NCBI GenBank assembly: GCA_951804945.1
Contig: OX638154.1
Coordinates: forward strand, 63,178,001 to 63,242,000
Direction: 5' to 3'
Length of the DNA: 64,000 nt
DNA from: Podarcis cretensis
Taxonomy: Eukaryota
The position numbers and the translations under genes were made by a program. Shown here one piece after another: positions 9,301-12,300 of the stretch (positions within the stretch are counted from its first letter, which is position 1; each line of letters opens with the position of its first letter). The notes beneath the pieces were generated by a model. The model was given only the letters and a program-made list of their open reading frames with translations. It was not told the origin of the DNA and did no database searches.

Positions 9301-12300
9301 ACATCTGGTTCAACTGTATGTGTGTAGTGAATTATTGTGTCCATAGCACATAAGAGTTAATCTTGGCTGCTTTTGATATTTTAAATAATTCAAATATATG
9401 TCAGATGCAGGTGATGGGGAAATGGTTCTGGGGGAAGGCCAAGAATAATAGCATTGTCACAGTTAGGAGACAATATTTGAAGCAGAATAATCAATAGCCC
9501 AGTTGGCTAATAAACAATAGTAGTTTGATTCATACACATATATATATATTTTCTATGTTTCAGTTTTTGTTGCTGATATACTAGTTTACATACCTGCAGT
9601 AATCTTGTACTGTTGTTATTTAAAAGAGACTTCAGCTAAGAGGAAGGTTGGTATGATTTATTTTTCTTTTCTTTTTTTGGACTTACAGTGAAAACTTTTC
9701 ATCTAGAATGGAAGGCAAGGATGGGGCTACCTAATCCTACAAAATCAGAAAATATTTTCTGCTAACATAAACTTGATAGCACAAATTGCTAGATCGTTTT
9801 ATAGTTAATAATGTTACATTGACCTCAGTTACTGGAAAGCCTTGCAAAAACAAAATGTATTGCAAGTAATGTTGACTTTTTTGTATAATTAAGAAACAAG
9901 GATTGCAAAAACAAACAAACATAGTATGCAGCATAATGCAAATTATATTTTTACTCGGAAGTAGGTCCCATTAACTTCAGTGGAATTTAGTCCCAAGTAA
10001 GATCGCATAGGATTGTAGACTTGCTTTTCTTCATTATATAATTATATAATATATACTTATATACTTTTGCCCTGCTTTTCCACTAAAAATGCCCAAGGCC
10101 TCTCTGGGTAGGCTGTTAACAATCTGGTAATGGCCACAGGAAAAGCCTTCTCCCAGGCCATCTCCAAACACCACTCAGATGTTGATAGGACACATAGAGC
10201 CTCTACTTCAGAGACATTGGAAGAGACTTTCTTTTTAGCCTTACTTGTACTTTAGATGCCCCCCGCCCACTTCCAATGTCTCTGCCCAATGCAGGTCACA
10301 GATCTTACTGCAGTCAAATGTTTGTGTGTGCTGGGGGTAAATTCAGTTCATGCTTTTGAATCCCACATTAAACATTTAGACTGGCCCTTTTAATAGCCAC
10401 GAATAGATGGCTGAATCACAGTTTTGGCCAGTAGAACAAGATATGTTTGTAGAGTGATGCAGTGGATTCTCTGTTGCCTTCTATGCATTGTTTCATCTGG
10501 GAGAAGTGAAACGTGTTTACGGTCACATACTCTTTTGAGGTTGCATGGGGATGAAAACATTTTTTCATGGGCAGCCTGGGCTGCATACCAGTAGGCAGCA
10601 GGACAAGGGGCAAAATGCAGAAGAGCAATGGATGTGCCTCTTACCTTTGTATTCTTACAAGTAGGGCTACATTCCAGCCTTGCAAAAGTCACACACCCCT
10701 TTTCCATCTGTCCTCAAGTCAAGTAAGCAAGCGCCATCACAGTTCAAAGCCTCATTCCAGCAAAGCAGAAATACTTAATGAGGATACAGACCAGGGCTGC
10801 TGAGGAGAGGGCCCGAGAGCCACATAGAGAGGCTTGGAGGCTGCACTCGGCCCCCAAGCCTGAGGGTTCCCCACCCTTGTTCTAGTATGTGATGACTTAT
10901 TACAAAATTAGCTTATTTGTGTTTCTTTTAATGCAGAATGTCTGTCTTTCTTTCCCAGATTTCTAGTGCTCTCTGCATACTGCTTTATCCAGGACTCATT
11001 CTGATTGATTACGGACATTTTCAGTATCCTTGCCTATTCTGTGATGTCATCTCTTTACACTTTACCAGTTCAATGGATCCTCTTAACCCAACACCAATCT
11101 CTTTGCTATAGAGCAACAAGAGATGTAATGGTTTAGGGGAAGTATGTGAACAAGGAGGAATAATTCCTGTTCATTGCATAAGATGTTTATAAGAGCAGTG
11201 AAAAAGATACAGATAAAGGATACAGCCCGCTGCACGCTTACCTCAGAATAAGAGCAGCTAACTCCCAATGTAAACATGCATAGGATTGTGCTGTTAGGTA
11301 TTAATGGCGCAGCTAAACATTTAAAACAACAGTTACTGCGCAATCTGGGTTTCTTCTCTTATGCTGAATGTGTGGATACACATTTGTTCAGTATGAAGTA
11401 CGTGGTATAAATACCCGAAGGTGAGTTCACATAGGCATATTTATCTCAAGATGACAGAAATAAAAGTTGTATGTGTGAAACAGCCATTGGAGATTTAACA
11501 GCAAAGATAACAATTTGATGTCACCTGTCCTTATCTCAAAATGCAGTTCGGTGGAGGCAATCCATAGGCTCTGTTGTGCATCCTCAAGGAATGTACTTTG
11601 CATGGATCTTTATGGAAAGGTAACAAAACTGCACATCATTATGATGGTTGCAGCCAGTATGGGCAAACTACAAATTTTCAGGGTCCTTGTTTTATGTTAT
11701 TTGAGAAGTGTAGGAACCGCTCCCCAGCTCTGCTTGCTTTTGAGTTTCGGGAAATGCCAGAACAGAGACACACAGATGATGTCGTTCCTTCAGGTTCTTT
11801 CATATTGGTGTTTGAGAGCTCAGGGCAAAATCTCCTCACAGGTAAGCACTTTGAATTCACATTTATTTCAACTGGAAGATTAATTAAACCTCAAATCAAA
11901 TTGCTTAAATCTCTCCCATTGAAATCTCTCCCATTATGGCATGGGCAATCAATTATGGTGGCAAGAGGAGACCATCTGAAGTATTTCATTTATAACTTAA
12001 CTTTTTAAATCTGTTTTGTCCTTAACATTAAAAACATATATAATTCTGTGAGCCTTGGCTTTGCTTTGTGGGGAGTACTTTGCCTGTCTTATGATTTTGA
12101 CCTCTTGGGCTCAATAGCATTCTGCTTGGCTCTAAACTACAAACAAATGGAGCTGTACCATTCATTGCCCTTCTTCAGCTATCTCTTGGGAAAGTGCTTC
12201 AAAAAAGGCCTGGTGGGGAAGGGGTGAGTATCTTTAAAAGTTGACATCCAGAAAATGGTCCTGGAATGCACTTAGGCAGGCTTGCCTTGGGAATTTGTGC

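Follow-up and report, generated by a model that had tools for sequence, protein, structure and literature searches.

The ALG6 locus and the intron in codon Gln165

The stretch of Podarcis cretensis DNA analysed here (64,000 nt, referred to as the window) carries on its forward strand 13 exons between positions 253 and 20650 that join into one open reading frame. Its translation, 479 residues long, aligns without gaps to the Podarcis ALG6 model P0127 and shares 471 identical residues with it. Homologues of this region carry PF03155, and the Podarcis ALG6 model family matches yeast Alg6 (6SNH) with an E value of 2.6e-89, covering residues 9–488. Judged by this full-length homology, the gene is ALG6, specifying Dol-P-Glc:Man9GlcNAc2-PP-Dol alpha-1,3-glucosyltransferase. 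One of its introns in the window splits codon Gln165 after the second base and is predicted to end in AT; the other 11 have GT-AG ends (11/11). The exon that follows this intron shares 98% identity with Zootoca and Podarcis ALG6. The features that bear on the removal of the intron are, in sequence order:

253..20650, + strand: ALG6 coding region, with 13 exons and 12 introns in the window, which starts downstream of the first coding exon
10959..11023, + strand: upstream exon, ending in GGA CAT TTT CA, with a phase 2 boundary that interrupts codon Gln165 (507-aa protein numbering)
11024..12037, + strand: predicted U12-type intron with GT-AT ends, 1014 nt, the orthologue of human chr1:63407127-63411145 (hg38)
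11024..11031, + strand: U12 5' splice site GTATCCTT, 0 mismatches to the consensus; of the 16 homologous loci with an intron here, 13 have this motif
11109..11111, + strand: in-frame stop met upon intron retention
12019..12026, + strand: U12 branch site TCCTTAAC, 0 mismatches; the putative branch adenosine is the second A of the site, at 12025
12030..12031, + strand: in-frame AA (QNIYN) at branch+6, probably not used; the human counterpart of this dinucleotide is AG
12034..12035, + strand: AC at branch+10, leading to a frameshift and a stop, probably unused
12036..12037, + strand: predicted terminal AT of the intron, at branch+12; 15 of 16 homologous introns have AG in this register
12038..12223, + strand: downstream exon, starting A TAT AAT TCT GTG (YNSV)
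12051..12052, + strand: first AG past the branch site, at branch+27, in frame (GHF-H-LG), a possible cryptic or mis-annotated acceptor

Both U12 signals proposed in an earlier, sequence-only reading of this DNA are present without a mismatch: the donor GTATCCTTG, counted from 11024, fits the consensus RTATCCTT and the branch site fits TCCTTRAC, versus 2–5 and 2–4 mismatches, respectively, in the other 11 ALG6 introns, none of which (0/11) matches either consensus perfectly. A polypyrimidine tract is absent, with pyrimidines at 5 of the 13 positions before the intron end versus 9–13 of 13 in the other 11. The end lies 12 nt past the putative branch adenosine, inside the 11–13 nt optimum given by Turunen 2013 (PMC3584512), as the same reading had calculated. 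Taken alone, each motif occurs in the window at chance level (RTATCCTT, 5 found versus 4.7 expected; TCCTTRAC, 6 versus 4.6), and for this reason we used motif placement at the junction, not motif counts, as evidence. For a single intron, both motifs would by chance fall at the junction defined by the protein with a probability of about 1e-7, which rises to about 1e-6 when all 12 ALG6 introns of the window are considered.

Further GTATCCTT words are found at 22425–22432 and 54386–54393 (+ strand); they lie outside the ALG6 coding region, are tied to no exon and correspond to a chance-level count. The ALG6 introns starting at 338 and 12879 (+ strand) begin with GTATGCC, two mismatches from the U12 donor, and were taken as U2-type in view of their AG ends and pyrimidine tracts and the lack of a perfect U12 branch site.

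The splice junction and its human orthologue

With the donor fixed, an intron end at 12037 yields the sequence GHFQYNS. Yeast Alg6 (6SNH) reads HGHFQYNSV at this site, without an insertion, and QYNS is kept from yeast to lizard. The sequence-only reading had taken this conservation to dictate the junction CA|ATATAAT. The AT end does restore the motif, but the protein alone permits five registers, namely 11024–12037 (GT-AT), 11025–12038 (TA-TA), 11026–12039 (AT-AT), 11027–12040 (TC-TA) and 11028–12041 (CC-AT), all of which result in GHFQYNSVSLG. We have thus rejected protein conservation as sole proof, because identical residues from five shifted registers leave the junction unfixed. The GT-AT register was chosen because it is the only one with the U12 donor in place, because the AG of the homologous introns sits in the same register and because the human orthologue is read-supported as GT-AT. 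Along with the 22 of 23 lacertid models that contain QYNSVS, the human orthologue and the AG register of the homologues lend indirect support to the earlier assignment of a U12-type GT-AT intron with the junction CA|ATATAAT, and the GT-AT splice junction in this lizard is accordingly stated as what these comparisons would predict.

By the features it shares with the human ALG6 minor intron, the lizard intron is the orthologue of the latter: position in codon 165, exon flanks, GTATCCTT donor, U12 branch site and AACAT end coincide. De Wolf 2021 (PMC8280824) classes the human intron as GT_AT and U12 and gives as its flanks an exon ending in CATTTTCA, the donor GTATCCTT, the intron end AACAT and an exon starting with ATATAA, all matching the lizard; the human intron end lies 11 nt from the branch site, and an AG follows the branch adenosine at a distance of 5 nt. 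The two introns differ in length (1014 nt in the lizard, 4019 nt in human), in the branch site (TCCTTAAC versus TTCCTTGAC), in branch-to-end spacing (12 versus 11 nt) and in the dinucleotide located six bases ahead of the true end, which is AA in the lizard and AG in human. Owing to the latter difference, the human type of mis-mapping to GT-AG cannot occur in the same way in the lizard.

The suspicion that orthologous introns might already be catalogued proved correct, as the human ALG6 intron has been catalogued repeatedly; the finding is real but not new, being already known via the human orthologue. Parada 2014 (PMC4176328) lists the intron as GTAT, U12-like, with a score of 88.3, a length of 4019 nt and GENCODE annotation, supported by 358 reads in 14 tissues, 5 cDNAs and 16 ESTs, and as one of five U12-like GT-AT rows in the high-confidence sheet. 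It is further catalogued by Olthof 2024 (PMC11347168; chr1:63407127-63411145, hg38), and the LRGASP report (PMC10402094) describes it as a GT-AT U12 intron that is rare although annotated, and onto which minimap2 imposes GT-AG ends at the cost of a six-base deletion. Sheth 2006 (PMC1557818) counted four GT-AT U12 introns in human and three in mouse, two of them conserved between the species, and reported that GT-AT splices productively, its main text leaving ALG6 unnamed. GT-AT is described as a known animal subtype by Larue and Roy (10.1101/2022.09.24.509304), and G-starting U12 introns are reported to splice to AG or AT (PMC4176328, PMC1557818, PMC3584512). The introns of ADAT2 (DEADC1), SLC24A6, CACNA2D2 and OCRL belong to the same GT-AT U12 subtype (PMC1557818; PMC4176328), but reside in genes different from ALG6, so that a common origin is not implied. 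The ALG6 intron is not a new kind of system.

A further claim had been that the intron has no AG to fall back on. AG is indeed absent from 11982 to 12050, and the only AG starts between 11951 and 12070 are at 11964, 11966, 11969, 11980 and 12051; an intron end at 11981 would shift the frame and lead to a stop. While this holds for the lizard, it is not the cause of AT use, since human skips its AG at branch+5 in favor of the AT at branch+11 and since the in-frame AG is preceded by another AG, at +4 to +6, in 4 of the 16 homologous loci. The explanation that AT is used for want of a nearby AG was therefore rejected.

Homologous introns and annotated proteins

A scan of metagenome contigs gave 48 homologous loci, of which 43 were readable at the exon start; L028, L033, L038, L045 and L048 were left out as their match fell short of it. 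The site is uninterrupted in 27 of the 43, which may represent transcripts or intron-less genes, and an intron sits at exactly this position in the other 16 (13 after merging of near-duplicates). The donors of these 16 loci are GTATCCT in 13 cases, GGATCCTTT in one and U2-type in one, with the remaining donor off the contig; their 3' ends are AG in the register of the lizard AT in 15 cases and TG in one, and the branch-to-end distance ranges from 9 to 15 nt in the U12-type loci. L001, a teleost locus by virtue of an encoded exon identical to that of sea bass ALG6, has a GT-AG U12 intron at the site. This and other non-tetrapod loci resemble the lizard in intron position, phase, U12 donor, branch site and 3' end register, but end in AG rather than AT.

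Three of the intron-bearing loci depart from this pattern. L022:1173-2401 has GG-AG ends, with the U12-like donor GGATCCTTT and a U12 branch site, on a single contig where a sequencing error may be responsible. L011:1620-1650 has a TG end 11 nt past a U12-like branch site, with the donor off the contig, which could reflect an independent GT-TG state. At L026:2189-2400, a U2-type donor (GTGAGAG) in the absence of a good U12 branch site points to an apparent conversion of this intron from U12 to U2 type.

The last two intron bases can also be read out from mis-called proteins that enter the exon from the intron, via the residue preceding YN. This residue is I or M, corresponding to AT-, in 16 of 17 cases in the tetrapod-centred sets, the remaining one being T (AC-) in a frog model. 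In the teleost-centred set, 10 rows have R here, which fits AG-, and one has L. The frog model is P0117 (Rhinophrynus dorsalis), whose GHFQHTYNSVS implies an AC intron end (GT-AC or AT-AC state); the L stems from P0205 (Mastacembelus), where QNPLYNGVS fits neither AG nor AT and is probably a model error.

Since AG occupies the register of the lizard AT in 15 of the 16 intron-bearing homologous loci, including that of a teleost, the AT probably arose on the tetrapod line from an old GT-AG U12 intron, with the dating of the change resting on one named teleost locus, further loci and read-through peptides. Subtype switches of U12 introns are known (Sheth 2006, Table 3, PMC1557818). A switch from AG to AT at ALG6 is stated in none of the main texts found; intron databases and supplements, e.g. 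that of Larue and Roy, may hold it.

The sequence-only reading had further expected automatic annotation to go wrong at this junction. Such errors are common in birds and snakes, but the lacertid models are right, as QYNSVS is present in 22 of these 23 predictions and the remaining one lacks the region. Among the 120 proteins of the first homologue set, the junction is as expected in 46 and deviates in 65, while a flank is missing from 9. The deviating models comprise 57 bird sequences that read through the U12 donor (QYP...), 6 with two to three extra residues and 2 on the downstream AG. The bird read-through, like the human intron and the 13 homologous loci with a GTATCCT donor, speaks for a U12 intron kept at this position in orthologues. 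Wrong or odd junctions thus amount to 65 of the 111 models with both flanks in this set versus 5 of the 103 models in the teleost set with its AG intron ends, a contrast that is only suggestive because the pipelines differ between the sets and deviation counts depend on the pipelines that made the models. The two models on the downstream AG are squamate (Euleptes and Tiliqua isoform X2), so that this AG may be in some use. NIYN or NMYN insertions occur in several mammal and snake models. Six of the 15 listed snake models (P0110, P0148–P0150, P0154 and P0156) read QTNIYNSVS and are three residues longer, probably by use of an AG nine bases before the AT, be it through mis-annotation or as an alternative acceptor of snakes.

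Alternative explanations and dependence on the minor spliceosome

That ALG6 output may be sensitive to minor-spliceosome activity, as had been suggested, finds mixed support in data on the human orthologue. CENATAC depletion raised ALG6 intron retention from 0.17 to 0.34 (padj 4.8e-5 at 24 h and 1.3e-3 at 48 h), and ZRSR2 mutation from 0.20 to 0.68 (padj 2.8e-8), the latter with use of an alternative donor; the averages reported for G-type introns are +0.07 (CENATAC) and +0.19 (ZRSR2). In CENATAC patient cells, by contrast, the change from 0.18 to 0.29 did not hold after correction (padj 0.50; all PMC8280824). The human intron was also unresponsive in 6 of the 9 perturbation sets in Table S6 of Olthof 2024 (PMC11347168), namely MOPD1 amniotic, MOPD1 fibroblast, Roifman and the U12, U4atac and U6atac morpholinos, and retention in siRNPC3 cells went from 0.20 to 0.24 (p 0.57; PMC12332006). 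For an effect of ALG6 intron splicing on glycosylation, no report was found in the literature searched.

The lack of response to these morpholinos, in MOPD1 and Roifman cells and upon siRNPC3 would fit an intron that has the ends given here yet owes its removal chiefly to the major spliceosome, and ZRSR2 is described as active in both spliceosomes. We nevertheless consider this very unlikely in view of the missing pyrimidine tract, the perfect U12 signals at donor and branch site, which are conserved among distantly related animals, and the response of the human intron to CENATAC, a minor-spliceosome factor (PMC8280824). An error of sequencing or assembly that turned the AG of an ordinary GT-AG U12 intron into AT would agree with the AG of homologues outside the tetrapods, and a single assembly was read; as human has AT at the same base, as read-through peptides of gecko, snake and mammals imply AT and as the site is free of N or low-complexity runs, such an error appears extremely improbable.

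The remaining alternatives concern other 3' ends. The AG at 12051–12052 is the only canonical one past the branch site, does not open onto a stop, and its product, five residues shorter, appears in 2 of the 120 homologous models. The earlier reading was right that this AG is in frame, but its use would replace QYNSVS by a single H, thus more than the predicted deletion of YNSVS, and would remove the QYNS element shared with yeast. Its distance of 27 nt from the branch adenosine compares with the optimum of 11–13 nt and with the range seen in homologous U12 loci, and the Tiliqua and gecko clusters also include 507-aa QYNSVS models, the form of nearly all lacertid models; that it provides the main product is therefore hardly to be expected. 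For an intron end at AA 12031 or AC 12035, one could invoke that the former is in frame, as had been stated correctly, that the latter lies at branch+10 and that NIYN/NMYN insertions exist in mammal and snake models. Yet the human form that is six bases longer is described as a mapping artefact (LRGASP, PMC10402094), the AC end would shift the frame and run into a stop, again as anticipated, and GT-AC is disfavoured (PMC3584512), making either end an exceedingly unlikely choice.

We are highly confident that the intron in ALG6 codon 165, with its U12 donor and branch site, is one that the minor spliceosome likely removes at the AT end, like its human orthologue. Following the established U12 pathway, U11/U12 would recognise the donor jointly with the branch site, and selection of the 3' end would depend mainly on its distance from the branch adenosine. 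AA at +6 would then lie too near and AG at +27 too distant. Of the two ends in range, AC at +10 and AT at +12, the latter would pair better with an intron starting with G, and the spliced product would read GHFQYNS. The homologues suggest that an old GT-AG U12 intron is concerned, whose AG may have become AT after the split from teleosts. To judge from the human data, splicing could be somewhat inefficient, with retention of about 0.2, and retained transcripts would meet the stop at 11109 and be degraded or give no enzyme. One might go further and imagine a single AG-to-AT change near the tetrapod base, kept in mammals, birds and squamates as a conserved throttle, i.e., a slow, unusually ZRSR2/CENATAC-dependent intron that limits the addition of the first glucose during synthesis of the N-glycan precursor; we regard this extension as speculative and rather improbable.

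For annotation, the ALG6 junction is a known trap. Concerning disease genetics, minor-intron genes in glycosylation disorders include ALG6, ALG3, ALG8 and ALG12 according to Olthof 2020 (PMC7507305), which also gives a pathogenic -2A>G variant at the human ALG6 acceptor (ALG6-CDG); the human AT acceptor thus bears a pathogenic variant for which the nearby human AG seemingly provides no rescue. With respect to splicing biology, the lizard sequence contributes two minor points: the AG decoy of human is absent and hence dispensable, and the AT looks derived from AG, the homologues suggesting a dated switch.

Elsewhere in the window, N runs (assembly gaps) are found at about 30800–32300, far from the intron. 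Overlapping open frames at 45457–46179 resemble the 3' end of a LINE retrotransposon, which they may represent.
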